Shown one piece after another: positions 5,875 to 55,818 of a stretch of 64,000 nt of DNA. Location: assembly GCA_020241865.1 (NCBI GenBank), contig GCA_020241865.1_4709.1. One strand, given 5' to 3'. The DNA comes from a phage. Made by a program: the position numbers and the translations under genes. Position 1 is the stretch's first letter; each line of letters begins with the position of its first letter. Under the pieces are notes generated by a model. That model did no database searches. It saw only the letters and a program-made list of their open reading frames with translations, and was not told where the DNA came from.

Positions 5875-8800
5875 TTACTTTTTGAGCGCTTTAAGTTCTT
5901 CTTCCAACGCTTCCACTTTTGCCGTAAGCTTCTGTACTTGTTTGATTAATGGAACCACCAAACGTTCGTACATGACACCTTCAGCGACGAGTCCGTTAGA
6001 AGAAACGATAGCGGGGTCATCTTCTTCTGTTGCATCACGCCAGTGCACGTACTGCGGTGCGATCTCGCCAACCTCTTCAGCAATCAACCCATACCAACCC
6101 CAATCCTTGTTGTCTGCTTCACATGTAGAACGATACCACACAGGACGCATCTCCAATACTTTATCCGCTTGTTCATCCGTGATATTCTCGATATCTTTCT
6201 TATAGCGACGCGACGACGTTGAACGAAACACATTGTTGATCCCAGAAACAGGACTGATATACATGTTAGCCCCGCTGGTTGTAGTGCTAATGTCCCATAC
6301 CGCAAATCCGCCGTTACTCCCATTTTTTACGATCAATGTGTTGGCAATAATGTCCAGGTTATTGTCGTAACCGGTTAATTGTCTTTCCGTTACATAACTG
6401 GATAGATTGACCGAGTAGTTCTTACTGTTATAACAACGACGCCATCCTGGGCTGTTGGTACTGCCATTATAGTTGTCGTAGCTATAAATGAACTCGGAGT
6501 TGGTTTTCGCACCACTGACGGAAGACGTGGTTGCGGTCGTAACACGGATGGTATAGTTTGTCATCCCGAAGCTAACGACCTCGATAACAGCACCAGCCAG
6601 AGGGATAATACCGCACTTGGTTTCACTGTCTGGGATGTATGCGCTGTCGGCAGCTGCGAAGGAGCAACGTGCGACCCAGGCGCGGGTATTGAATGCACCT
6701 TGGTTTTGCAACAACGTGATAAACGATGAGGTCGTAATCGAGCTGTTATTATCACCGGTGATCAACCAGCCGGTCGGGCATGCGGTTGCGCCAACGTTTT
6801 TCGCTGTTAACGTGATGTTCTGCGATCCGTCGAAGGCTACGCCACTGATAGTACGCGCAGTCTGCAGTTTCGTCGCCGTTGCTGCGTTCCCTGATGTGTT
6901 CTGGTTCCCTGCGGCGTTAACACCCGGCAGATTGATATTCGCACTACCGTCGAAAGACACCCCACCAATGGTGCGGGCGGTTTTCAGTTTTGTCGCCGTG
7001 GCGGCATTACCGGTCGTGTCTTGGTTACCGGTGGTGTTTACCCCAGGTAGGTTGATATTGGCCGTTCCGTTAAATGAAACACCACCAATCGTCCGTGCCG
7101 TTTGCAACTTCGTTGCGGATGCCGCATTCCCCGTGGTGTTTTGGTTACCTGTTGTATTCACACCTGGGATACTATCCTTAGATGTGTAGATCTGTGCCCA
7201 TTCCGACCAGTTCGCATCTGATGCATCACGACGCGAACGTAGGTAAGCTGGAGCGTGTGCGCCTGAAGTACCTGACCATCCAATAAGGATCTCACCTTCA
7301 CCTACTGCGGTTGCTCCTTTAAGATGAACAACGTTACCGTAGGCTGTAGGGTATCCGTTATTGTACGCTTCATACATCTGGATACCCGTATTGCTGCCCT
7401 GGGTCGCATTAGCTAAAGCGGTGACCCGTCCCTTGGAAGCGAGCACGTTAATGCTAAAGCTAATATCGGTTGTACCGTCAAAGGCGACCCCATTAATCCT
7501 CCGCGCTGTTTGGAGTTTCGTGGCAGTAGCCGCATTACCAGAGGTACTCTGATTGCCTGCTTTGTTCACACCTGGTAAATCAATGTTGGCGGTTCCATCA
7601 AAGGACACGCCCCCTATGGTTCTCGCCGTCTGAAGTTTTGTTGCTGAACCAGCGTTTCCGGAAGTGCTTTGATTACCCGCCGCGTTGACACCTGGTAGGT
7701 TAATGCTAGCAGAACCATCAAAAGAAACTCCACCGATCGTAATAGCTGTTCGCAACTTCGTGGCTGTCGCAGCGTTACCCGTCGTATTCTGATTACCAGC
7801 TGCATTGACGCCAGGTAATGCGATATCAGCTGTGCCATCGAACGCGACACCTCCGATTTTACGGGCGGTTTGTAGCTTGGTTGCTGTAGCAGCATTACCG
7901 CTGGTATTTTGCGTACCGGCTTTATTTACACCAGGAAGATCGATGTTAGCAGAACCATCGAAGCTGACGCCACCTATCGTTCTTGCAGTAGCAAGTTTAG
8001 CGGCTGTAGCAGCGACGTTACCGACTTTTAACCATTCTCCCCATGGACCATCCACACCGTTCCATGATGCCGTTAAACTGCGCACGTATATGTTTCCTGT
8101 ACGTACTGTGTAACGTTGTGTTCCACCGAATTGACCGGCTGGGAGCACTTCGATGTAACCTACAGCATTTGCTTCAGGGAAATTGTGGGCAGCATCGGCA
8201 TTCGTTGATGTTTGTTTGGACCAAATACCCACAGACGCTTCAACCGGACCGTAGGTATTCAGGTTTGCATCGGTTGGGAGTTGTCCTCTGAAACGACGGA
8301 ACGACGAGGCGTTAATTCCCAATATCGTTTGCATCCCTTCAACACCGGACTGCTGTAAGAGAGCGCGTGCGGTAGAAGTGATCGTTGCAAGCGCTACTTT
8401 ATCAGCACCTGTGAAATACGGTAATTTATTCGCTGATGTTGTTAGTCCAGAAAGGGCTGTGAGCAAAGCGTTCAGCGGTTGTTTGCCAGCTAAAGCGTTT
8501 GTTACAGTTGTCGCGAAGTTAGGATCGTTACCTAACGCTTGCGCCAATTCATTGAGTGTGTCCAACGCTTCAGGAGACGATCCGACAAGCGCTGCGATAG
8601 CACGCATCACAAATTCGGTATTCGCAATCTGCTGACTTTTATCGCCTTCGGCTGCGGTTGGTGTTGTCGGCTTATCGGTAAATGCCGGGCTAGAAAGATC
8701 CGCTTTAGCGCTAATTTGTGTTGCTAGGACTTTCCCGGCTTTCGCGGATAGTGCGAGTACTTCACTATCACTGTTCGTCGCCGAGGTTAACTGAACTAAC

Positions 8801-9399
8801 CCTTTACGTGTGGTACTAGCGTCCACTGCTGTGTACTTTCCTTTCGCAACATCCATCACAGCTTTAACTGCTTTTGATGTTGCGGCTTTGGTTTCGTCGT
8901 CACTATTTGTTTCGCTGCTAAGGATCGTTAATCCCCGTTTCTCGGTGGTCGCATCTGGTAAGAATGCGTCACTAACAACCTTCAATTCGATCGCATCGGT
9001 ATTGCTTACGACAACAAATACCTGACAATTTAACACACGTCCTGCCCCTTCGGAAGGCAGTGGTTTGTACCCTTCTGGCGCATTGCCGACAACGACAAGT
9101 TCACCCTGATCGTCGTACAGACCGATCTCACGCACCCAGAACCCACCTTGACTGGCGGGAATAATGCCTTCAACAACAATCCGGGTTGTGTCGTCAACAT
9201 CAATGTGGATGTTAGAAACTTCCCCACGATAAACTTCGTGTACGAGCGCTGTTTGGCTAACATCGGGGGTTGGTGTAGAGCCGTTTCCGTCACCAACAGC
9301 AAAATGTGTGATTCTTAGTTTCTCACCGTCAGGAAGTAGCGCTGCGGCAATACGTTCAGCGCCTTTATCGGTAATGACCGTTTTATAAGTTGTACTCAT
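5875..9399 (-). CDS. long tail fibre: P2 gpH/Stf-like N-terminus, Phage_fiber_2 tandem repeats, C-terminal S74-type intramolecular chaperone
   Basis: 1174-aa ORF; N-terminus MSTTYKTVITDKGAERIAAALLPDGEKLRITHFAVGDGNG is collinear with P2 H / lambda Stf N-termini; eight ~40-aa repeats (ATATKLQTARTIGGVSFDGSANI(D/N)LPGVN); C-terminus has the STSSRRYKKDIENI motif and a coiled-coil tail typical of self-cleaving chaperone domains. Confidence 0.85.
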   Translation of the reverse strand: MSTTYKTVITDKGAERIAAALLPDGEKLRITHFAVGDGNGSTPTPDVSQTALVHEVYRGEVSNIHIDVDDTTRIVVEGIIPASQGGFWVREIGLYDDQGELVVVGNAPEGYKPLPSEGAGRVLNCQVFVVVSNTDAIELKVVSDAFLPDATTEKRGLTILSSETNSDDETKAATSKAVKAVMDVAKGKYTAVDASTTRKGLVQLTSATNSDSEVLALSAKAGKVLATQISAKADLSSPAFTDKPTTPTAAEGDKSQQIANTEFVMRAIAALVGSSPEALDTLNELAQALGNDPNFATTVTNALAGKQPLNALLTALSGLTTSANKLPYFTGADKVALATITSTARALLQQSGVEGMQTILGINASSFRRFRGQLPTDANLNTYGPVEASVGIWSKQTSTNADAAHNFPEANAVGYIEVLPAGQFGGTQRYTVRTGNIYVRSLTASWNGVDGPWGEWLKVGNVAATAAKLATARTIGGVSFDGSANIDLPGVNKAGTQNTSGNAATATKLQTARKIGGVAFDGTADIALPGVNAAGNQNTTGNAATATKLRTAITIGGVSFDGSASINLPGVNAAGNQSTSGNAGSATKLQTARTIGGVSFDGTANIDLPGVNKAGNQSTSGNAATATKLQTARRINGVAFDGTTDISFSINVLASKGRVTALANATQGSNTGIQMYEAYNNGYPTAYGNVVHLKGATAVGEGEILIGWSGTSGAHAPAYLRSRRDASDANWSEWAQIYTSKDSIPGVNTTGNQNTTGNAASATKLQTARTIGGVSFNGTANINLPGVNTTGNQDTTGNAATATKLKTARTIGGVSFDGSANINLPGVNAAGNQNTSGNAATATKLQTARTISGVAFDGSQNITLTAKNVGATACPTGWLITGDNNSSITTSSFITLLQNQGAFNTRAWVARCSFAAADSAYIPDSETKCGIIPLAGAVIEVVSFGMTNYTIRVTTATTSSVSGAKTNSEFIYSYDNYNGSTNSPGWRRCYNSKNYSVNLSSYVTERQLTGYDNNLDIIANTLIVKNGSNGGFAVWDISTTTSGANMYISPVSGINNVFRSTSSRRYKKDIENITDEQADKVLEMRPVWYRSTCEADNKDWGWYGLIAEEVGEIAPQYVHWRDATEEDDPAIVSSNGLVAEGVMYERLVVPLIKQVQKLTAKVEALEEELKALKK
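6620..8100 (-). repeat. diverged tandem coding repeats (Phage_fiber_2-type) inside the fibre gene
   Basis: Five plus three ~120-nt units encoding the GNAATATKLQTARTIGGVSFDGS motif; they generate the antisense pseudo-ORFs at 6617..7189 and 7805..8113; boundaries approximate. Confidence 0.7.
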
Positions 9400-9405
9400 G
9401 GCGTT

Positions 9406-9954
9406 TTATCCCGGGTAAATAGTGATGACATCACCGATGACAGTTGCCGCACCGGCGCAAAGATACGCTGGTGATGTATCACGCTGGTTTGTCACGATAA
9501 GATCCAATTGCCCACGCCAAACCATGGAGGTATTCGCGATGGGAATCGAGATCTTCTTGGATGTGTCGTCACGAAAATCAATGACAGTAGCAAGGATAGC
9601 TGAATCAAAATCAGCATCGGTTTCAAAGATGAATCCGTACTGATCTGAAATAGCTTGAATAACCGCTCTTATAGTTGTTGTTTCAACCGACTCCAAAACG
9701 ATTTTCATCGGTATCCCTAGAAACGCTTTCGCGATATCACGTCGTGTGTAAGTGATAAAACTTTCACCACACCACCTTGTTCCTTCATTTGCTGTGACGA
9801 TCACTTTTGCCCTGTTAGCACCAGAACTCCTATCCAGGGTTAAAGTGAGATCGGAGTTGCTGAACACGCTACCGTTACGTTGGTTTATCAACGTAATCAG
9901 TTCGTCTTTCCACGGCAGGTAAAGTGAACGCATAAGCGCACCCTCCTCCAACAA
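9406..9954 (-). CDS. anchor-module-only protein (N-terminal fibre domain with no distal domain)
   Basis: 182-aa ORF; contains the shared module (YTRRDIAKAFLGIPMKIVL ... YGFIFETDADF) and ends 6 nt before the start of fibre gene 5875..9399. Confidence 0.6.
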   Translation of the reverse strand: MLEEGALMRSLYLPWKDELITLINQRNGSVFSNSDLTLTLDRSSGANRAKVIVTANEGTRWCGESFITYTRRDIAKAFLGIPMKIVLESVETTTIRAVIQAISDQYGFIFETDADFDSAILATVIDFRDDTSKKISIPIANTSMVWRGQLDLIVTNQRDTSPAYLCAGAATVIGDVITIYPG

Positions 9955-9973
9955 TCAAATTAAGATGCAAAAC

Positions 9974-10001
9974 GCCTCGAAACCGGAGTGCGATTCGAGG
10001 C
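9974..10001 (-). terminator. rho-independent terminator (8-bp stem, 12-nt loop) downstream of fibre gene 10090..11859
   Basis: GCCTCGAA/TTCGAGGC inverted repeat; on the minus strand it is followed by GUUUUGCAUCUUAAUUU. Confidence 0.6.
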
Positions 10002-10046
10002 AAACGTAAACAGTCTTAACGACCGCATAAAATTCCGCGCATATTA

Positions 10047-10058
10047 CCCCCCCCCCCC
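10047..10058. repeat. C12 homopolymer (G12 on the minus strand) in an intergenic hairpin context
   Basis: 12 consecutive C, followed by TCGCTTCGTCGAGGTAGGGGAGG, which can pair with the C tract; 32 nt downstream of the stop of 10090..11859. Confidence 0.9.
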
Positions 10059-10089
10059 TCGCTTCGTCGAGGTAGGGGAGGATAACACT

Positions 10090-11859
10090 TTATGCCGCTA
10101 CATACCCAGGCCAACGTTCTCTTGGCCAGTTTGTTGCGCCCTGTCCAACGTTGTCCTTACCAGAAGTTACATTACTTACGTCCCAACCACTAAGATCCTG
10201 GTTAAATGCGGTGTTGTTGCGCATCATGAGGTCGATCCTACGTAACGATTGGGTATTCCAGCCGGAAATGTCTTGGTTGAATGCCGCGTTGTAAGCAAAC
10301 ATGTTAACAACGTCTTGTAATTTTGAAGTGTTCCAGCCGCTTATATCGCTATTGAACCGCATGTTCGAGAACATACTGCTAGCGTTGACAAGACTACCTG
10401 TTTTCCAGTTAACCAGCTTGTCCCCATCAAGTGCATAGCAGCTACTGAACATGTAACTCATGTCGTTAACTTTGGATACATCCCATTTATCTAACCCGTT
10501 ACCAACGAACTTGCGACAATCTTGGAACATCGAGCTCATATCGGTAACCTGGCTCACATTCCATTTGCTAAAGTCGAGGTTGAGGTTTGTGCATCCGGAG
10601 AAGGTTTGATACATACTGGTGATACGACTAACATCCCATTCTTGAATGTTAGGATCATTAAGTATAGATAAGAATTTGAACAATTCGTCTAACGACGTCC
10701 ATTTCTCTGGGATACGGTTTGGTACGGTACGGAGTGATAAAAGGTAACTGGTTGACGGAGAGCGGAACATACCGTTATCCCAATTTACGATTTCTGTAAT
10801 GTTGGACCCACGGATCGTTTGGCGTCCGTTACCATTATACACAGACCCTGTTGCAGTTATTGTATATTCGTTTGTATCAGCATACGTATATTCAGCCTGT
10901 GTAGGCCACTCACCTATTACATCCCTATTCCCATCGCCCCAATCAATGGAAATATCTATCCAACCATCAAGATCTAGGGTAACGGTCCCGCCATTGGTCT
11001 TCAGGACGTATTTACCTGCATTGTCGGTATAATAACAAACAATCATCGCACCGTACAGGTTACCAATTTGCCAATCATCCTTTTGAGTTACCGCGATATG
11101 TGCTGTGCCACGTTGTAGGAAAAGAACCGTACGGTTCTCGTCAGTCTGTAATGTGGTTAATGCTTGAGCCTTATCATCGTCGGTAATTTCACCAGCTTCC
11201 ACTAAAGCACTTAACATTCTTTCGAAGTATTCGATGGGTAATTGGCGTCCTACAGACATATCAACTGATGGAACAGCGAGATCATCCAATGCGGCGGCAG
11301 TTGCAAGCACTAATGATCCATTGGTGGTGTCTGTTTCTTGGAGGTAATGCAGTCCCGTAATCTGGTACGCTTGAATGATTGTAATCAGATCCAGCGTATC
11401 GTTAATGACCTGTACTTGTAAATGTCCAGACCAAACATAGCTGCTTTCAGCAATCGGTAATTCGACCGACTGAATACCCGATGTTTCAAAACTGATCTTC
11501 TTATTAAGATCGGCTTCCAGGAAATCAACCGCGAGGTCGAAATTTATACCGTACTTTTCAGCGATGGAATCTATGATGTTCCTGAAAGCAACATCGGTAC
11601 TTACGATGAATCGTAAAGGGATTCCTGTGAACGCATTAGCAATATCTCGACGAACATACGTAAGTGATTGTTCGAAGAAATAGGGACTGTTATCTCCAGG
11701 TTTGATGGTTACCTGACACATTTCAGGATGTTCAGCTGGGATGAACGATTCAAATTTAACATCGGATTCCTTCAACGAAAGCATGTTCTTCCGGTTTACC
11801 AGCGCCAGAAGATCGGCTTTCCATCCAGGATAAACAGTAGACATAAGCACTCCAATCAT
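10090..11859 (-). CDS. tail fibre with shared N-terminal anchor module and C-terminal DUF285 (BspA-like) repeats
   Basis: 589-aa ORF; N-terminus YVRRDIANAFTGIPLRFIV ... YGINFDLAVDFL; C-terminal repeats such as WNVSQVTDMSSMF, WDVSKVNDMSYMF and FNQDISGWNT match the DUF285 repeat pattern. Confidence 0.75.
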   Translation of the reverse strand: MIGVLMSTVYPGWKADLLALVNRKNMLSLKESDVKFESFIPAEHPEMCQVTIKPGDNSPYFFEQSLTYVRRDIANAFTGIPLRFIVSTDVAFRNIIDSIAEKYGINFDLAVDFLEADLNKKISFETSGIQSVELPIAESSYVWSGHLQVQVINDTLDLITIIQAYQITGLHYLQETDTTNGSLVLATAAALDDLAVPSVDMSVGRQLPIEYFERMLSALVEAGEITDDDKAQALTTLQTDENRTVLFLQRGTAHIAVTQKDDWQIGNLYGAMIVCYYTDNAGKYVLKTNGGTVTLDLDGWIDISIDWGDGNRDVIGEWPTQAEYTYADTNEYTITATGSVYNGNGRQTIRGSNITEIVNWDNGMFRSPSTSYLLSLRTVPNRIPEKWTSLDELFKFLSILNDPNIQEWDVSRITSMYQTFSGCTNLNLDFSKWNVSQVTDMSSMFQDCRKFVGNGLDKWDVSKVNDMSYMFSSCYALDGDKLVNWKTGSLVNASSMFSNMRFNSDISGWNTSKLQDVVNMFAYNAAFNQDISGWNTQSLRRIDLMMRNNTAFNQDLSGWDVSNVTSGKDNVGQGATNWPRERWPGYVAA

Positions 11860-11882: not shown

Positions 11883-14800
11883 TTAAATTGTCGGTTTCAC
11901 GTCGCGTAATAGGGCAATATAATAGCCTAATCCTCGGAGGATCTCCCCACTCCAGAAACCAAAATACATTCCGTCTCTGCCGAGATTAGCACTATCTGGT
12001 GCAGGACTCCACCCACCATTCATTGCGTCATCAACGGTGTAGCGGTTGATGTAGTTTTCAACGATTTCATTATAAACGTTAACGGCAACAGGATAGCCTT
12101 TATCGTTGGGATGCCCATACAACATCGCTAACGACGCACCCGCTAACCATAATCCTGCCATATGACCAGTAAAGTCATTAGGGATAAAAGCAGGGGGTTT
12201 ATCCATCGGAAAATCCGTAGGAGATTGATAAGCGTTTTCCTGTTGATACGTAAACAAGAAATCGATCCAATGGCTGATGTAAGTGGTTAACTTCTCAGGG
12301 ACAGCCAAACCACGATCAAGCAGTCCGGCATAAAGCCTCACCACTGAAAAGAAAGCCCTCGGCTGATAACCAGGCCATGCTGTCTGATCGCCGAAGTGGT
12401 ACATCGTAAAATCATTAACTTTCGATCCGCTTGGCGCATCCCAACGATCCCACACGTACGCACTTGCTCCTGGCCCTAAAACCCCGAATTTCTGATAATA
12501 CCACTGCTGCGAGTCATACCAGAAATTCACAACATTCTGAATCATGAGGTCACGTCGTTCAGCCGATACGTCCATATCCAGGAAGACCCATGGATGTTGG
12601 TAGCCGGGATAAGGCTGACCACGCCAGCTGTCGAACGTCGGTGCGTTAGGGATATAGTTGTTCGAGAACGGAATAATACCCGGAGTATAAGGCAATGGAT
12701 CCAGACGTTGGTTGACAATCGTACAATCGCCAACACGCAATGTGCCCTCTGCCTCAAAGATTGCTTTTAACGTAAACAGCATGGTATATCCGTCATCCGT
12801 GGTGTAAGTTGACGGTGGATTGTTGATGGCGTAAAGCTTAAATACCCCTTCAGCGATATCGCTGTCATCAGGCAAGAACAGAATTTCAGTTGAACCGTCG
12901 CCCCACACAGGTGCGGAAGGTTTAGGGTCAGTATCAGCATGGCCAGGTTGATACCCTGAGAGCCTCCATCCGTTCGCCGAAAGCGTCAATGTATTTCTTG
13001 CTGTGGTGGCCGGTAGCATATACCACCATCGCCAACCATTTGCATCTTCTACACGAACGTTGTAGTCAATCGACGCGAAATAACTGACCTGCCTTACGAT
13101 CTGTTTTGCGGTTGGATTGAATTCAAATTGTCCGCCTGCCGCAGTAAGCTGCGCTTTTAGGAACAACCCATCCCAGGAATCTTCCACTGCTTCGCTGAAT
13201 TCTGTTGTGATTGCGATATCGTCTTTCCAGCCGACTTTATCAGCCGACATCAACACCGAACCTGTAACAGCATCACCGGTTGGTATTGAAGCTTCATCAA
13301 CCGCATCAGCGGGAATCAACGAGCCTATTTTGAAATCCCATCCTTTCGGTTCAACGCTGGAAGGTAATACCAGCTTGTACGTTTTGGCTTTCGCTTCGGT
13401 TTTGTCCAAAGAAAGCGATAATGAGATCTCAACCGGAATTGCAACGCCTGTCGTATCTTTACCGCCGCAGGTTACCCGAAGAATTGAATCACGATTGACG
13501 CGGAACGGAATGGCCTGCTGTTCAAGGTAAATTTGTGCTGAAGATGCTTGAATCACGATCCAACCATCGGTATCACGCGTGATTGTGAACGGCGCTTTCG
13601 ACGGGTATGTATACGTGTAAGCGATACCGTCGGTGTCGTAACGATCGGTTCCTTTTACTTGACGGAAGAACTTATCGTTAGCGTCAATACGGGTATATTC
13701 TTCAATCGTAAACAAAGACGCCTTGTACGCTTTCTGATAACGCTCCTGCTGCGTTAAACGGTATAAGGTGTAGGCTGCTTCACAAAACCACTGTTCAGCG
13801 TCTGACGCGTTTCCCATGTAGTCTCTGGTGACCGGCACCTGGATCGGTCGGTTATGCTGACACTCGTTCGTTTTGATAAGGTATCCGCCATATTCAACAG
13901 GAACACGCGGTGCCCATGCAACCAAGTAAGAACCGCTGACGGATTTATTTTTGAGTACGATAGTACCTACTTCATCGTCAGTACACGCTTCAAGATCGTC
14001 CCCGTCAGCACTTACGTAACGTTTTGTGCGTAACGCAACTTTCTCGATAGGGAACACCGTACCCTTTGTATCCCAGTCAATCGTCCCATCATCATTGGTT
14101 TTGAACACATCCGCGTTCAAATTCTGCCAGCCGAGTTTACCTTCATAGACCTGAACAACAAGATCCATGTATTCCCCGAACGTTGGTGCCCCATGTGTTA
14201 TTTTCCCGATACCGTTGGTGAATGTAACCGCTGTGTCATGGAAACCGCCATGTGTTGGGTAATCGTCTTTTGCAAGAGGATAATGGGCCAACACAGGTTG
14301 TTTACCATTAACAATCCAGTTAGCGATCCAGCGTGCCGGTGTATCCGGTGGTTCAAGGCCTGCATAGAACGCTTTTATATACGCATCGAACGATGCCTCT
14401 GCTAATGTGAGATAGTGCGCTTTAAGCTTGGTATCATCCGTTGTATGACTGAATATACCCGCACCCAGAATTAACAACGACTGTCCTTCTGTTGTTGCGT
14501 CACCATCCGGTTGTGCTTCTTGTCGTGTTGCTGCAATGAAATGACGGTTGTTTACCATGACCCCGCTTTCATTTAACACGTAATGATCGGTTTCTGGGTC
14601 GGTAAACGTTCCTGTGTTTCGGGTTAAGAATCTTGCATGGCCATAACCAACGAAATTAACCGGCGACGCTGTAATCATCCATTTACCGATAAGTTGAGCA
14701 ACATCATTATAACGCTCGGATGCGGTGATTTGTTTCACGTACCAGTCTTTATGGTTAAATGTCCAAAGCAGGAAGTAATAAGTTGTATCGATTTCCATCA

Positions 14801-15479
14801 CTGGGAACGTCGGCGTTAACGGCTCCAGCGTTAAGTAGTTGCTCCAGTCAATCTGTCCGCCAACCACCGATGGGGTAATCTCTAATAACTGACACCATTC
14901 ATAACGGTCCGGTACACTACTGGACGTTGTTGGTAAAGGTAACTTGTATACGCCAGTACGATTCAGATCGAACGCTTTTCTAGCCGATCCTAAATCAACA
15001 TAAATACTCGATGATGCGCTTGCACTATATGCCCCCAAAGCACCTAGCGTTGACCGATACATTGAGATGAACAACGTATCTTTCCAGTAAGGGTTATCCT
15101 TGGTTGGTTCTAAAGCGATTTGTGCGGAGATGCTGTTCCATGTCCCTAACTGGTATGTCGCATTTAAAGATTCTTCTGTGAAATAACTTTCTGCAATCGT
15201 CAGATGGAACTGCTCGTTCAATAACGCGAGTGCGGCGCGGCCAGTAACATCCTCGTTACCGGTTTCTTTTTTCACGATCGCGCCGAACGGAAACAGTGTC
15301 GCGAATGACCGTTTTGGTTTATTAACCGTAACCGTCCCTGTGTAATTTCCAACACCGTCGAGTTTTTGACTATCGCCAACAGCAGTGACTGCGATACCAT
15401 CAACCGGGATATCTGTTTTATTTAGTATATTGAGTTGGTCAACCAGATCCTGCTTATCGTCAGGTAAGAATGTCGCCAT
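11883..15479 (-). CDS. large tail/baseplate-associated structural protein (possible tailspike)
   Basis: 1198-aa ORF inside the fibre locus; the N-terminal ~80 aa resemble the shared anchor module only weakly; no catalytic motif recognised. Confidence 0.55.
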   Translation of the reverse strand: MATFLPDDKQDLVDQLNILNKTDIPVDGIAVTAVGDSQKLDGVGNYTGTVTVNKPKRSFATLFPFGAIVKKETGNEDVTGRAALALLNEQFHLTIAESYFTEESLNATYQLGTWNSISAQIALEPTKDNPYWKDTLFISMYRSTLGALGAYSASASSSIYVDLGSARKAFDLNRTGVYKLPLPTTSSSVPDRYEWCQLLEITPSVVGGQIDWSNYLTLEPLTPTFPVMEIDTTYYFLLWTFNHKDWYVKQITASERYNDVAQLIGKWMITASPVNFVGYGHARFLTRNTGTFTDPETDHYVLNESGVMVNNRHFIAATRQEAQPDGDATTEGQSLLILGAGIFSHTTDDTKLKAHYLTLAEASFDAYIKAFYAGLEPPDTPARWIANWIVNGKQPVLAHYPLAKDDYPTHGGFHDTAVTFTNGIGKITHGAPTFGEYMDLVVQVYEGKLGWQNLNADVFKTNDDGTIDWDTKGTVFPIEKVALRTKRYVSADGDDLEACTDDEVGTIVLKNKSVSGSYLVAWAPRVPVEYGGYLIKTNECQHNRPIQVPVTRDYMGNASDAEQWFCEAAYTLYRLTQQERYQKAYKASLFTIEEYTRIDANDKFFRQVKGTDRYDTDGIAYTYTYPSKAPFTITRDTDGWIVIQASSAQIYLEQQAIPFRVNRDSILRVTCGGKDTTGVAIPVEISLSLSLDKTEAKAKTYKLVLPSSVEPKGWDFKIGSLIPADAVDEASIPTGDAVTGSVLMSADKVGWKDDIAITTEFSEAVEDSWDGLFLKAQLTAAGGQFEFNPTAKQIVRQVSYFASIDYNVRVEDANGWRWWYMLPATTARNTLTLSANGWRLSGYQPGHADTDPKPSAPVWGDGSTEILFLPDDSDIAEGVFKLYAINNPPSTYTTDDGYTMLFTLKAIFEAEGTLRVGDCTIVNQRLDPLPYTPGIIPFSNNYIPNAPTFDSWRGQPYPGYQHPWVFLDMDVSAERRDLMIQNVVNFWYDSQQWYYQKFGVLGPGASAYVWDRWDAPSGSKVNDFTMYHFGDQTAWPGYQPRAFFSVVRLYAGLLDRGLAVPEKLTTYISHWIDFLFTYQQENAYQSPTDFPMDKPPAFIPNDFTGHMAGLWLAGASLAMLYGHPNDKGYPVAVNVYNEIVENYINRYTVDDAMNGGWSPAPDSANLGRDGMYFGFWSGEILRGLGYYIALLRDVKPTI

Positions 15480-16382: not shown

Positions 16383-16439
16383 AAAAAAAAAACGAAAAAA
16401 TAGGAAAACGGTGTTCATCCTTTTTAGGGATGAACACCG
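16383..16439 (-). terminator. strong rho-independent terminator closing the fibre-locus transcription unit
   Basis: 12-bp perfect stem (16409-16420/16428-16439, loop tttttag) followed on the minus strand by a U tract (A10 at 16383-16392 on plus). Confidence 0.8.
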
Positions 16440-16459
16440 CGTACCGTTATATCGAACGA

Positions 16460-18205: not shown

Positions 18206-18259
18206 GATGATTTCCTTCTTTATTAGGATGATTACGTTTAGTCAGTTTAACAGCATAAA

Positions 18260-21131: not shown

Positions 21132-21191
21132 GATAAAGATCCTTATTGAAATAAAATCGGTATAAAGGCCCCCCCATTTAGGGGGACCTGA

Positions 21192-32270: not shown

Positions 32271-32529
32271 TTACGCCAGGCGGTACCACAATACCGGTAC
32301 GAATCACAGCAGCAACTTCCTGCATGCCCTTACCCTTCAACGCATAGGTTTCATGTACCACATTACGTCGAGTCGTTAATCCAACAAATTTACATACAAC
32401 CATGTTGTTTTCTGAAAGATAAGCGGTGTCGAGTTCACCGTGCAACAATTCTTTTTCTTTGGTATCAATACCTAATAACGCAATTTGATAAGCAGAAAGT
32501 TTCCAATAACGCATAATCGTCCTATTCAT
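32221..32529 (-). CDS. hypothetical protein
   Basis: 102-aa ORF; overlaps the downstream gene, so the start is uncertain. Confidence 0.35.
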   Translation of the reverse strand: MNRTIMRYWKLSAYQIALLGIDTKEKELLHGELDTAYLSENNMVVCKFVGLTTRRNVVHETYALKGKGMQEVAAVIRTGIVVPPGVSDNLDEVLHGTRKTAR

Positions 32530-33350
32530 AAACTATCAAATATTCTGAAACCAAGTTTCTTGTTTCTACTTTTGCCGAAATCGTTCTTCGTACAGTTACA
32601 GGGTACAATTTTGTCGCCGAACTATAAATCTCTTCAGTCAACGCACAAGCACTGTTGCTAATGATTGTAGGAATTCCCCGCGAGCGCAAGTTGTCAGCCT
32701 TTTCTGCAAGATAACGATGATCGTCTAATGTAAACCCCTCTTGAGTATAGCCCGTAAACGATGCGGTGGGGGAAATGGGAATATAAGGAGGGTCGCAATA
32801 AACGACGTCACCCGGAACCACCTTTTCAAGATGCTTCTGGAACCCACCACTTACAATTTCTACCCCCCCCCCCCTCGACGAAGGCAGCCTGAAGATGGTT
32901 CGCTGCCAGACGCAATTCCTGTTTCGGGAAATAGACGGTCTTATACCGCCCATGCGCAACATTAAATAAACCATCACGATTATAACGACATAAGCCATTG
33001 AAACCGTAACGGTTTAAATACATGAAGCAAACTGCGCGTTCCCACGGATCTTCAGCGCGGTTAAAACGTTCACGTATCTCGTAGTAGCTTCTGACGTCGG
33101 TAGGATCCGTTTGAAAAAGACGTTCCACTTCTTCGATGAAAGATTCTGGACGCGCTAGCAACGCAGACCATACTGAGAGAATATCCTCATTCGCATCACC
33201 TATCGAATACGCTGGGTACTTAAGAGCAAGCGTAACAGCGCCGGAACCAACGAATGGTTCAACAAGACGCTTTCCTTTAGGTAACACTTTTTCAATCTCA
33301 GGGATAAGCCTGGTTTTGTTCCCAAGCCATTTAAGAAATGTTCTGCTCAT
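32522..33350 (-). CDS. dam: DNA adenine (N6) methyltransferase, Dam family, reading frame interrupted at a G12 homopolymer
   Basis: Two overlapping ORFs (32826..33350 and 32522..32998) whose frames differ by 1 are together collinear with E. coli/T4 Dam: N-terminal KWLGNKTRL ... EPFVGSGAV SAM-binding region in the first, catalytic DPPY motif in the second; the junction is the G12 run (C12 at 32863..32874 on plus); one fewer G would fuse the frames. Confidence 0.8.
32863..32874. repeat. C12 homopolymer (G12 on the coding strand) inside the dam coding sequence
   Basis: 12 consecutive C counted directly; encodes GGGG in the upstream frame; same length and same TCG 3' flank as the tract at 10047..10058. 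Confidence 0.9.
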
Positions 33351-42100: not shown

Positions 42101-42173
42101 TTTAATCTCCTCTCCCGACTTCAGAGAATTCTTAAAATCCGTTAGTTTTGATAGATAGGGTAAGACGGCATAA

Positions 42174-42196
42174 AAGCCTCCCATTACGGGAGGCTT
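42174..42196 (-). terminator. hairpin of the recurrent family (AAGCCTCCC/GGGAGGCTT, loop attac) followed on the minus strand by TTATGCC
   Basis: 9-bp perfect stem; lies between the stop of 42208..42756 and the start of 41216..42100. Confidence 0.55.
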
Positions 42197-43775: not shown

Positions 43776-43807
43776 CCCTCCTCCTTCCCTGTTGGGTTGG
43801 AGGAGGG
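43776..43807. terminator. hairpin of the recurrent family (CCCTCCTCC/GGAGGAGGG, 14-nt loop); covarying copy of the hairpin at 149..180
   Basis: 9-bp stem; loop ttccctgttgggtt; flanks ACATAA ... ATATGCTGTTAT are conserved with site 149 while the stem differs by compensatory changes. Confidence 0.6.
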
Positions 43808-54215: not shown

Positions 54216-54250
54216 AAGCTCTGCCTGACATCAGGCAGAGCTTTATGCTG
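54216..54250 (+). terminator. hairpin immediately after the helicase stop, followed by TTTATGCTGTAT and a 22-codon mini-ORF
   Basis: 10-12-bp stem GCTCTGCCTG/CAGGCAGAGC; downstream ATG at 54245 opens an ORF (MLYLLQDRMTYMRCIYLIRQNK) whose TGA overlaps the ATG of the fibre gene at 54310. Confidence 0.55.
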
Positions 54251-54309: not shown

Positions 54310-55764
54310 ATGAAACTTAAACAAAGCTGGAAAGACGAACTTCTCGCGTTAGTAAACAGCAAAAACAGTTTACAACTGACATTAGACGATGTAAAATTTG
54401 AACTAACGGCACCGGTAAGCGAAGTGCCTGGAACGGTCGTTGTTACAATCAAACCGAACGATAATAGTCGCTACTTTAACGAGCAGTCTCTGACCTACAT
54501 CCGTCGAGACATCGCTAAAAACTTCACTGGGATCCCGTTACGGGTCATCGTTAAAAAAGATACCGCTGTAAGGGATATCATCAATACGATTGCTGAACGT
54601 TACGGATTGGTATTTGACACAGCCGTCGACTTCCTCGAATCCGAGCTGAATAAACAAATTACGTTCGCAGACACCGGTATTAAAGACATTACGGTTCCGG
54701 TTGCAAACACGTCTTATGTTTGGGCGGGTAATCTTCAGTTCAATATTGCTAACGATACGTTAAGCTTGATTACTATCATCAAGAAAACCGATCTTACGAA
54801 TCTGGTTTATCTGGATGGTGTTGAAGCTGACACATCTGGTTCGTTACTATTAGCAACCGCAGCACTTGTTAACGAACACGTAAATGAACCGATGGTTGAA
54901 AACGAAGATATCGTTAATGAATTTATTAACGTTCTTAATACTCTAGCCAAATATGGTGACATAACCGGCGATGAATTAGATGCCGCCTTACAAGCGTACG
55001 ATGAAGCAGAAAACAGGAATAAAACCACGGTAATAACTCTTGGTGATATCCAGTGTGTTGCAACAGAAAAAGACGATTGGGAAATTGGACGTTTACGCGG
55101 TCAGATGGTTCTCGCGCTCAAATCCGATAAATACCCGGAGCCCGATAACACGTTCAGGTTGTTTACGAATGGTGGTGACGTATCGCTAACGTTAAACACA
55201 ATGAAAGATATAAGTATCGATTGGGGTGATGGGAATAAAGTAACGTTGGATGCTGAAGAAAGATACGCGCACCACACATACGCCGACAATAACCAGTACC
55301 AAATCGAAATTGTGTCTCGTACGGACCCAGATGTGCTGCGACCAAATTATATTTCTGGGAGTGAGATAACCGAAGTAATTCACTGGGCTACTACTTCAAC
55401 AATAGCTCTGAATTTTGTTGGATGCGATAATTTAGCGACTGTTCCAGATGAGATCCCAACTTCGTGGACAACGTTGGACAGCATGTTTGAAAGTTGTACG
55501 AATTTGAATGATCCGTCTATCTCTAACTGGAATACAAGTAACATCACATCAATGAATGGTATGTTCGGCGGATGCACTAAATTTAACCAACCTTTAGCTG
55601 CCTGGGATGTCAGCTCAGTAACTGACATTGGTGGTATGTTTAACGGATGCAACAGTTTTAACCAAGATTTAAGTGGGTGGCGATTACCGTCAGGAGTAAC
55701 CCACGACAATTACGATAGTGGTGCTTTCTCGTGGCAGACGGAACATAAACCGACGTTCCAGTAA
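54310..55764 (+). CDS. tail fibre with shared N-terminal anchor module and C-terminal DUF285 (BspA-like) repeats, displaced from the main fibre locus
   Basis: 484-aa ORF; N-terminus SWKDELLALVNSKNSLQLT ... YIRRDIAKNFTGIPLRVIV ... YGLVFDTAVDFL; C-terminus FESCTNLNDPSISNWNTSNITSMNGMF, WDVSSVTDIGGMFNGCNSFNQDLSGW. Confidence 0.75.
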   Translation: MKLKQSWKDELLALVNSKNSLQLTLDDVKFELTAPVSEVPGTVVVTIKPNDNSRYFNEQSLTYIRRDIAKNFTGIPLRVIVKKDTAVRDIINTIAERYGLVFDTAVDFLESELNKQITFADTGIKDITVPVANTSYVWAGNLQFNIANDTLSLITIIKKTDLTNLVYLDGVEADTSGSLLLATAALVNEHVNEPMVENEDIVNEFINVLNTLAKYGDITGDELDAALQAYDEAENRNKTTVITLGDIQCVATEKDDWEIGRLRGQMVLALKSDKYPEPDNTFRLFTNGGDVSLTLNTMKDISIDWGDGNKVTLDAEERYAHHTYADNNQYQIEIVSRTDPDVLRPNYISGSEITEVIHWATTSTIALNFVGCDNLATVPDEIPTSWTTLDSMFESCTNLNDPSISNWNTSNITSMNGMFGGCTKFNQPLAAWDVSSVTDIGGMFNGCNSFNQDLSGWRLPSGVTHDNYDSGAFSWQTEHKPTFQ

Positions 55765-55818
55765 AAAAAAAAATAGTTAGCATATCTTCCTCCCTACCCA
55801 TAACGGGCGGGGAGGAAG
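55763..55818. terminator. bidirectional terminator between convergent genes (A11 tract plus GC hairpin plus GTTTTATGG)
   Basis: A11 at 55763-55773 (U11 for minus-strand transcripts), then stem CTTCCTCCC/GGGAGGAAG (55786-55794/55810-55818) with an inner CCC/GGG pair, followed by T-rich sequence on plus. Confidence 0.7.

Follow-up and report, generated by a model that had tools for sequence, protein, structure and literature searches.

A length-variable poly-G tract in a putative terminator hairpin between tail-fibre genes of a Goslar-like jumbo phage

The DNA analysed here is a 64,000-nucleotide stretch of phage contig GCA_020241865.1_4709.1 (the window), which comes from a relative of the Escherichia coli jumbo phage Goslar (Chimalliviridae). 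Our subject is a run of 12 C residues on the plus strand, at 10047-10058, in a region 82-96 % identical to Goslar in nucleotide sequence. The large open reading frames (ORFs) of the window lie mostly on the minus strand (79 of 89), as do the genes at the tract; the tract is therefore a G run (G12) in the mRNA, and "sense" below means the minus strand. Read in that direction, a gene for a gp92-like DUF7941 protein (11883..15479) is followed by one for a 589-amino-acid (aa) fibre protein with Pfam hits to DUF7941 and the leucine-rich-repeat (LRR)-like DUF285 (10090..11859), which is absent from Goslar. Past the tract come a DUF7941 protein of 175 aa, the homologue of Goslar gp91 (9406..9933), whose ribosome-binding site GGAGGAGGG lies at 9941-9949, and a 1174-aa tail-fibre protein homologous to Goslar gp90 (5875..9399; Pfam Phage_tail_fib, Phage_fiber_2 and Peptidase_S74). 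It has been suggested that DUF7941 proteins make up a host-recognition "fibre cloud" on Goslar (preprint 10.64898/2026.04.21.720040). A preliminary description of the window had placed the tract in an intergenic hairpin between fibre genes, close to the stop of ORF 10090..11859. The identity of the neighbours agrees with this, with two amendments: 31 rather than 32 nucleotides separate the tract from the stop (TTA at 10090-10092), and the downstream gene, given as 9406..9954, starts at the ATG at 9933 and not at the TTG at 9954.

A scan of the window for homopolymers returned only two G or C runs longer than 7, both of them C12 on the plus strand: the tract under study and another at 32863-32874. 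Both had been picked out in the preliminary description, together with the TCG on their 3' side; TA precedes both as well. The next longest is a single C7 (21169-21175), and G runs on the plus strand are all 5 or shorter. With about 2e-3 runs of at least 12 C or G expected in the window if bases are independent, and 7e-4 if they follow a first-order Markov model, the two tracts are real and far beyond chance. An assembly artefact had been named in advance as grounds for dismissing them. The tract at 10047-10058 is found in many independent public assemblies and therefore is no artefact of the assembly of the window.

In the transcript, the tract forms the distal part of the 3' arm of a terminator-type hairpin, hairpin 1 (10041..10088, minus strand; ViennaRNA fold). 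Downstream of the TAA of the upstream ORF and the segment AGUGUUAU come the 5' arm CCUCCCCUACCUCG (10068-10081), the loop ACGAAG (10062-10067) and the 3' arm, CGA plus G12 (10047-10061), and then a U and AAUAUGCGCGGAAUUUUAUGCG. The plus-strand GGGGAGG segment earlier suggested as the pairing partner of the tract is 10075-10081, within the 5' arm. An optional outer A/U extension, in which GUGUUAU (10082-10088) pairs with UAAUAU (10041-10046), takes the energy from -25.1 kcal/mol for the core to -32.7 kcal/mol; this outer stem starts at 10088, directly past the TAA of the upstream gene on the same strand. In 10 of 11 natural variants of hairpin 1 the sense strand folds better than the antisense strand, by 4-14 kcal/mol, because several of the pairs are G-U; the hairpin is therefore an RNA (or sense-strand) feature. 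Across the 11 distinct variants, pairing is kept in 95 % of cells, compared with 52-67 % when the alignment is slid.

Hairpin 1 does not stand alone. As the preliminary description had surmised, it belongs to a family of GC-rich hairpins in the window, of which we count about 13 members on the sense strand (for example at 18251, 25464, 50146, 43776, 55786, 62144, 62991, 148, 5282, 42173, 31584 and 21166). They are intergenic and follow the plan CCCUCCC-loop-GGGAGGG-UUAUGCUG, in which (U)UAUGCUG follows the GGGAGGG arm; the sequence TTATGCTG occurs 9 times in the window against 1.8 expected. This plan matches the intrinsic-terminator motif of phage phiKZ, 5'-BCCYCCCCHWWDGGGRRGGBYTTATKYYGT-3', which is based on the mapping of 61 terminators with ONT-cappable-seq (Putzeys et al. 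2024, PMC10914365); 201phi2-1 has a comparable one, motif A (PMC11512511). The 3' half of the phiKZ motif, GGGRRGGBYTTATKY, has 18 matches in the window against 3.6 expected, and one of these is the tract of hairpin 1, where GGGGGGGTAATATGC departs from it at two positions, both inside the TTAT box. The full 30-nt motif is matched once, at 42165-42194. Hairpin 1 carries the CCYCCCC-type 5' arm (CCTCCCC on the sense strand, the complement of 10075-10081) and has the location of a phiKZ terminator, in sense orientation at a gene end. Instead of the 4-nt HWWD loop between 7-nt arms, it has an inner CCUCG/CGAGG helix and a 6-nt loop. By the motif that its members share, then, the GC-hairpin family corresponds to the conserved chimallivirus terminator, and hairpin 1 is a long-stemmed, atypical member of it. 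By analogy, hairpin 1 would terminate transcription by a phage RNA polymerase, probably the phage's own multisubunit enzyme. A generic scan for sigma-70 promoters and terminator consensus called neither hairpin 1, because it has no T run (its tail is UAAUAUGC, where a canonical Rho-independent terminator has U residues after the stem), nor the second hairpin described below, because its loop exceeds 8 nt; an Rfam scan of 9700-10300 gave chance-level matches only (E > 5).

Other members of the family deserve mention in their own right. The hairpin at 21166-21189 has a G7 in its 3' arm (AGGUCCCCCUAAAUGGGGGGGCCU, then UUAUACCG), which is the C7 of the plus strand, and may represent an earlier stage of the same homopolymerisation. 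Four others (149-180, 43776-43807, 54216-54243 and 55786-55818) have (T)TATG on both strands (for instance at 147 minus and 183 plus) and resemble the bidirectional terminators reported for phiKZ and 201phi2-1. Long runs of A or T are limited in the window to an A11 (55763-55773) and an A10 (16383-16392). The former starts at the TAA stop of a plus-strand ORF and flanks the apparently bidirectional terminator hairpin at 55786-55818; the latter, a T10 on the sense strand, comes after a terminator hairpin at 16403-16445.

Comparison with relatives suggests how a hairpin arm became a homopolymer. Nine relatives were retrieved first, with an invariant 22-mer next to the tract (see below) as the search pattern; the others were found by exact protein look-up and are 97.7-99.96 % identical to the window. 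Where the window has its run, relatives retrieved with the 22-mer show an interrupted arm. Goslar, L004, L008 and L010 read CGGGGUAGAGGGG (CGGGGTAGAGGGG at this position); L006 and L011 have CGAGAUAGAGGG, a perfect 12-bp stem in which the L006 arm CGAGATAGAGGG is fully paired, and L005 has CGGGGUAGAGGGGG. On the plus strand, the Goslar counterpart of the tract, CCCCTCTACCCC, is likewise 12 nt long; the run therefore arose mostly from changes towards G and not by expansion. Thus, the earlier view that a family hairpin arm has turned into a homopolymer is upheld by the interrupted arms of relatives, whereas the proposed route, expansion of a pyrimidine arm, is not: in the transcript, the run is the purine 3' arm, and it grew mainly by substitution. 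Such substitutions would cost little at the RNA level, since the 5' arm consists of C and U only and G pairs with both.

Once formed, the run appears to have become unstable. The preliminary description had suggested that its length might vary and had proposed a comparison with related genomes, and these genomes do differ in just this way. We found G9 in L028 and L117; G10 in L007; G11 in L009, L027, L118, L120 and L121; G12 in the window, L025/L116, L030 and L123; and G13 in L119 and L122. The range from G9 to G13 occurs among genomes that are 97.7-99.96 % identical. L119 differs from the window by one extra G and by nothing else in 2528 nt; L027 and L028 are set apart by one substitution and two G's over 2729 nt. 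Changes at this site are not confined to length. Between genomes 99.2-99.5 % identical, the loop at 10062-10067 is found exactly reverse-complemented, CUUCGU in place of ACGAAG, and must therefore have flipped more than once. In L026 and L114 a GGUA (GGTA in DNA) has been inserted, and L115 reads CGAGGUAGGGGAGGGGGG; the 3' arm thereby becomes the exact complement of the 5' arm. A G-to-A interruption is also seen at the tract site. Judged by their form, these changes are the signatures of slippage and of template switching in a quasi-palindrome. Loop inversion and GGUA insertion cannot be homopolymer read errors, and the site of hairpin 1 is a real mutational hot spot.

The second C12 tract of the window stands apart from this one. 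It lies 22.8 kb away, inside a Dam methyltransferase gene (32522-33350, minus strand; tract at 32863..32874), where G12 frameshifts the gene into a 174-aa ORF and a C-terminal ORF; with G11 or G14 the gene is in frame and encodes 275 or 276 aa. The identical dam allele is present in public assemblies as G10, G11, G12 and G13, as confirmed at the DNA level. Three different haplotypes of the flanks, free of any further mismatch, are found for G11 and likewise for G12; one sample series includes G11, G12 and G13, and the C-terminal ORF is intact in all. More distant dam alleles have interrupted tracts (GGGAGGAGGGG and GGGGGGAGGGG), one of which is also frameshifted; Goslar has no dam gene. By these sequence features, the dam tract fits the classic idea of a contingency locus and has the appearance of a true on/off one, set in the orphan methylase of a jumbo phage that forms a nucleus.

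The equal lengths of the two tracts had been taken as a sign of a shared slippage-based switch. We find no support for this idea: the hairpin tract (9-13) and the dam tract (10-13) vary independently, so that the 12/12 combination of the window is a coincidence, and equal length was discarded as a mark of coupling. What the two sites do share is sequence. In relatives with the un-inverted loop (L007, L009, L121 and L122), the sense strand of the hairpin reads CTTCGTCGA-Gn-TA, exactly as at dam, and the common flank extends to 9 nt (TCGACGAAG; window sites 10059-10070 and 32875-32883). This 9-mer occurs three times in the window, twice at the tracts, and 11 flank bases would match by chance at a given pair of sites with a probability of about 2e-7. 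Some of the flank, however, is older than the homopolymer (CTTTGTCGA in L006). The shared flank suggests that the two loci are related in sequence, not that they are controlled together; a plausible source of it would be gene conversion, or a template switch, from one G run to the other. The only sample common to the look-ups of both loci, SRR29676570, has G13 in the hairpin tract and a dam contig broken at its tract; IMG/VR contained neither a match to CTTCGTCGAG9 nor a close relative of the Dam protein.

Two further elements separate the tract from the gp91-like gene. Directly 3' of the tract lies the 22-mer AATATGCGCGGAATTTTATGCG (10024..10045, minus strand), which is identical in all of the approximately 25 relatives. 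This invariance is partly built in for the first nine, for which the 22-mer was the search pattern; it is backed independently by some 14 loci that were retrieved through protein identity, each of them 97.7 % or more identical to the window. Among the relatives retrieved with the 22-mer, divergence of the coding flanks reaches 17 %. The element carries the degenerate "TTAT" box of the terminator motif along with two TATG motifs. In phiKZ, TATG is the core of late promoters used by the non-virion RNA polymerase (nvRNAP), with transcription starting at the G (PMC4666361). The TATG motifs of the 22-mer are possible cores of such promoters by analogy, or the 22-mer might be some other regulatory site for the gp91- and gp90-like fibre genes; these genes may thus have a promoter of their own. 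Hairpin 2 (9962..10001, minus strand; -13.4 kcal/mol) is located 45 nt downstream of hairpin 1 and consists of GCCUCGAA, a 12-nt loop, UUCGAGGC and then GUUUUGCAUCUU; at 9974-10001, it has GUUUUGC as its U tract. Every relative has kept this element, the sense strand showing wobble changes, and it is a canonical-looking intrinsic terminator or a hairpin of the 5' untranslated region.

Does the length of the tract matter? The core of hairpin 1 is computed at -20.1 kcal/mol for G9, -21.9 for G10, -24.0 for G11 and -25.1 for G12 and longer; GGUA alleles reach -29 to -30. Goslar-type hairpins range from -20 to -25 kcal/mol and the other family members in the window from -16 to -25. No natural allele is thus predicted to be an obvious "off" state. 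The preliminary description held that length changes would alter the stability of the hairpin and hence termination or read-through into the downstream fibre genes. Calculated stabilities of -20 to -25 kcal/mol for G9 to G13, inside the range of Goslar and of the family, and the presence of hairpin 2 downstream speak against this, and an on/off switch at the hairpin tract is unsupported. The account we favor, and hold to be somewhat more probable than all others taken together, is that an intrinsic-terminator hairpin of the chimallivirus type has the tract as its purine 3' arm and that the tract's hypermutability is a near-neutral by-product of this role, not the working of a dedicated switch. 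On the sense strand, members of the family combine a pyrimidine-rich 5' arm (CCYCCCC) and, past a loop, a G-rich 3' arm (GGGRRGG) with a (U)UAUG box after it. A 5' arm made of pyrimidines only would tolerate A-to-G changes in its partner, and in the clade of the window the partner arm could in this way have turned into a pure G run. With some nine or more G:C pairs in a row, the run would slip at replication, and its position inside a quasi-palindrome would promote template switching; a hot spot would therefore result, with lengths from 9 to 13, repeated loop inversion and templated GGTA insertions. Most of this variation would be buffered. The 3' end of the run always adjoins the same tail, so the run would end beside A/U-rich sequence whatever its length; surplus G's would bulge or dangle, fewer G's would merely shorten a very long stem, and a second terminator-like hairpin stands downstream. 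Near-neutrality is what these features lead us to infer.

Several observations weigh against this account. The tail after the G run, UAAUAU, is a poor U tract and the TTAT box has its two mismatches, so that hairpin 1 is possibly a weak, or an atypical, representative of the terminators. Its function as a terminator is argued from analogy with phiKZ and 201phi2-1, and a search found no transcriptome of a Goslar-like phage. Covariation in the hairpin is sparse: with one compensatory pair, the 11 distinct variants do no better than shuffled alignments (176 of 500 score as high), and the test does not prove the structure statistically. From G12 upward, 1-2 G's stay unpaired between stem and tail, and in GGUA alleles 4-5 do. 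In canonical terminators, the spacing between stem and tail matters; termination may thus depend to a modest degree on length. A long G run has been kept across roughly 8-12 % divergence (window, L007 and L009), a persistence as compatible with selection for the run itself as with constraint on the stem. Finally, all calls of tract length come from short-read assemblies.

This last point invites the objection that, although the tract is real, its length differences are mostly sequencing and assembly noise at a long G/C homopolymer and reflect no biological hypermutability. Such runs are indeed hard to sequence and assemble: two contigs end in or beside hairpin 1 (L029 and L030) and six at the dam tract. 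Against noise speak differences of up to 4 nt (G9 versus G13) and, at the same site, the loop inversion, GGTA insertion and G-to-A interruption, which are not homopolymer errors. The dam tract, with G11 and G12 each on three otherwise mismatch-free haplotypes, three lengths in one sample series and identical contigs recovered from several samples, points the same way, and we regard a mostly technical origin as improbable. If the variation is real, one could imagine that it is selected. The G run would then be a contingency locus working as a rheostat: slippage, by changing the length of the stem and the number of unpaired G's before the A/U tail, would tune termination against read-through from the upstream DUF7941 fibre genes into the gp91- and gp90-like genes, and progeny would vary in fibre stoichiometry. 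The length polymorphism among near-identical genomes is in keeping with this scheme, as are the rise in core energy from -25.1 (G12) to -20.1 kcal/mol (G9), the increase in spacing to the tail from 0 to 1-2 nt in G12 and G13 and to 4-5 nt in GGTA alleles, and the location between genes for receptor-binding structures. Precedents exist in documented phage contingency loci (PMC12633550) and, within the same genome, in the clearly frame-switching dam tract. On the other hand, every natural allele stays inside the stability range of the Goslar hairpin or of other family members, hairpin 2 with its better U tract lies 45 nt downstream, and the invariant 22-mer with its TATG motifs precedes downstream genes that may have their own promoter. 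In addition, Goslar-type relatives manage the same gene junction without a homopolymer. These considerations make us doubt that the run is a selected rheostat, even if the idea is the most probable of the alternatives.

The TATG motifs suggest yet another function. The first TATG past the run (G12-TAA-TATG) might be an nvRNAP late promoter with its start at the G, which would put the run at about -7 to -18; initiation for the fibre genes downstream would then depend on run length, or on extrusion of a DNA hairpin. The phiKZ late promoter core (TATG, +1 at G; PMC4666361 and PMC12809450) and the invariance of the 22-mer, with the proviso made above for nine of the relatives, lend this some credit, and a hairpin followed by TATG is the rule in the window. 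The TTATK box is, however, part of the mapped phiKZ terminator motif, so that a TATG past a hairpin needs no promoter to account for it. Furthermore, phiKZ nvRNAP uses no sequence-specific upstream element and makes only backbone contacts from -17 to -24 (PMC12809450), and since the 3' end of the run is fixed relative to TATG, length changes would move only non-conserved upstream DNA. We would be surprised if the run proved to be a promoter element. The shared flank, for its part, could be accommodated in a broader and highly speculative scheme, to which we give little credence: a few hypermutable poly-G tracts, related to each other and sharing the flank CTTCGTCGA-Gn-TA, would be present in Goslar-like jumbo phages, one toggling the orphan Dam and the other, possibly seeded from the dam tract through homopolymer-mediated template switching, tuning termination or initiation before the tail-fibre genes.

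Two other candidate roles for the tract were rejected. It does not mark the boundary of the inserted DUF285 gene. The 589-aa DUF7941-DUF285 gene is an indel relative to Goslar that spans 10103-11847, and Goslar has a homologous counterpart of the intergenic region that holds the hairpin; moreover, relatives carrying the gene have either type of hairpin (L005 and L010 versus L007). The indel itself is bounded by the microhomology CTACA..CC and supplies the DUF7941 fibre cluster with one more host-recognition module of the LRR type. Nor does the G run serve as the Shine-Dalgarno sequence of a mini-ORF (ATG CGC GGA ATT TTA TGC GGT CGT TAA): its stop falls in a variable stretch, and in Goslar the frame continues out of phase with gp91.

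The search for relatives brought to light a separate phenomenon. Near-complete contigs of about 238-243 kb of this virulent jumbo phage are present in many assemblies of bacterial isolates from surveillance projects. Such assemblies (NCBI GCA_ entries for E. coli, Salmonella and Shigella) include L020, L026, L031, L032, L034, L036, L118 and others, and proteins of these phage contigs are annotated as belonging to E. coli O157, Salmonella enterica or Shigella flexneri. This suggests a carrier state, pseudolysogeny or contamination of cultures.

Taken by itself, the intergenic tract is a modest result: a conserved chimallivirus terminator hairpin can degenerate into a slippage-prone homopolymer. 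At sites of this kind, slippage, inversion of the loop and templated repair become frequent; short-read assemblies will break there, and variant calls may be misled. The analysis also extends the phiKZ terminator motif to the Goslar group of E. coli and Salmonella. Within this genome, the dam tract is the more promising lead, with its repeated G10-G13 alleles on identical backgrounds in public data. Should tract length tune the fibre genes after all, phage contingency loci would gain a new kind, in which a repeat within a terminator stem serves as the rheostat of receptor-binding proteins. Should the two tracts form a related set, a single burst would yield progeny differing in both DNA methylation and fibre expression, a form of bet-hedging in a nucleus-forming phage.

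These properties can be set against those of better-known systems. Hairpin 1 resembles the phiKZ terminators in its CCYCCCC 5' arm, its G-rich purine 3' arm, its position on the sense strand directly past a gene and its (T)TATG-type box. It differs from them in a stem twice as long (14-15 pairs, with the inner CCUCG/CGAGG helix and a 6-nt loop), in a 3' arm that is a pure run of 9-13 G's, and in a degenerate TTAT box (TAATAT). With the canonical Rho-independent terminators of bacteria it shares a GC-rich stem-loop at a gene end, whereas UAAUAU, not a U tract, directly follows the stem. "Flip-flop" inversions of hairpin loops and template switching in quasi-palindromes are familiar from E. coli and T4 quasipalindromes and from intergenic hairpins of chloroplasts. 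The exchange between CTTCGT and ACGAAG in the loop and the 4-nt GGTA insertion that perfects the 3' arm are changes of the same type, even though the mechanism is here deduced solely from the mutation spectrum. The likeness to contingency loci is in the long homopolymer, a slippable repeat that is polymorphic in length among otherwise identical genomes and lies beside host-recognition genes. Poly-G tracts are present in receptor-binding genes of Campylobacter phages. Homopolymers in T2 agt and T4 rIIA are documented phage examples (PMC12633550). Known contingency loci, such as the poly-G tracts of bacteria, are found in reading frames or promoter spacers, where the gain or loss of one unit switches expression on or off; the hairpin tract is intergenic and occupies a terminator stem, a setting in which the same changes are predicted to be buffered.

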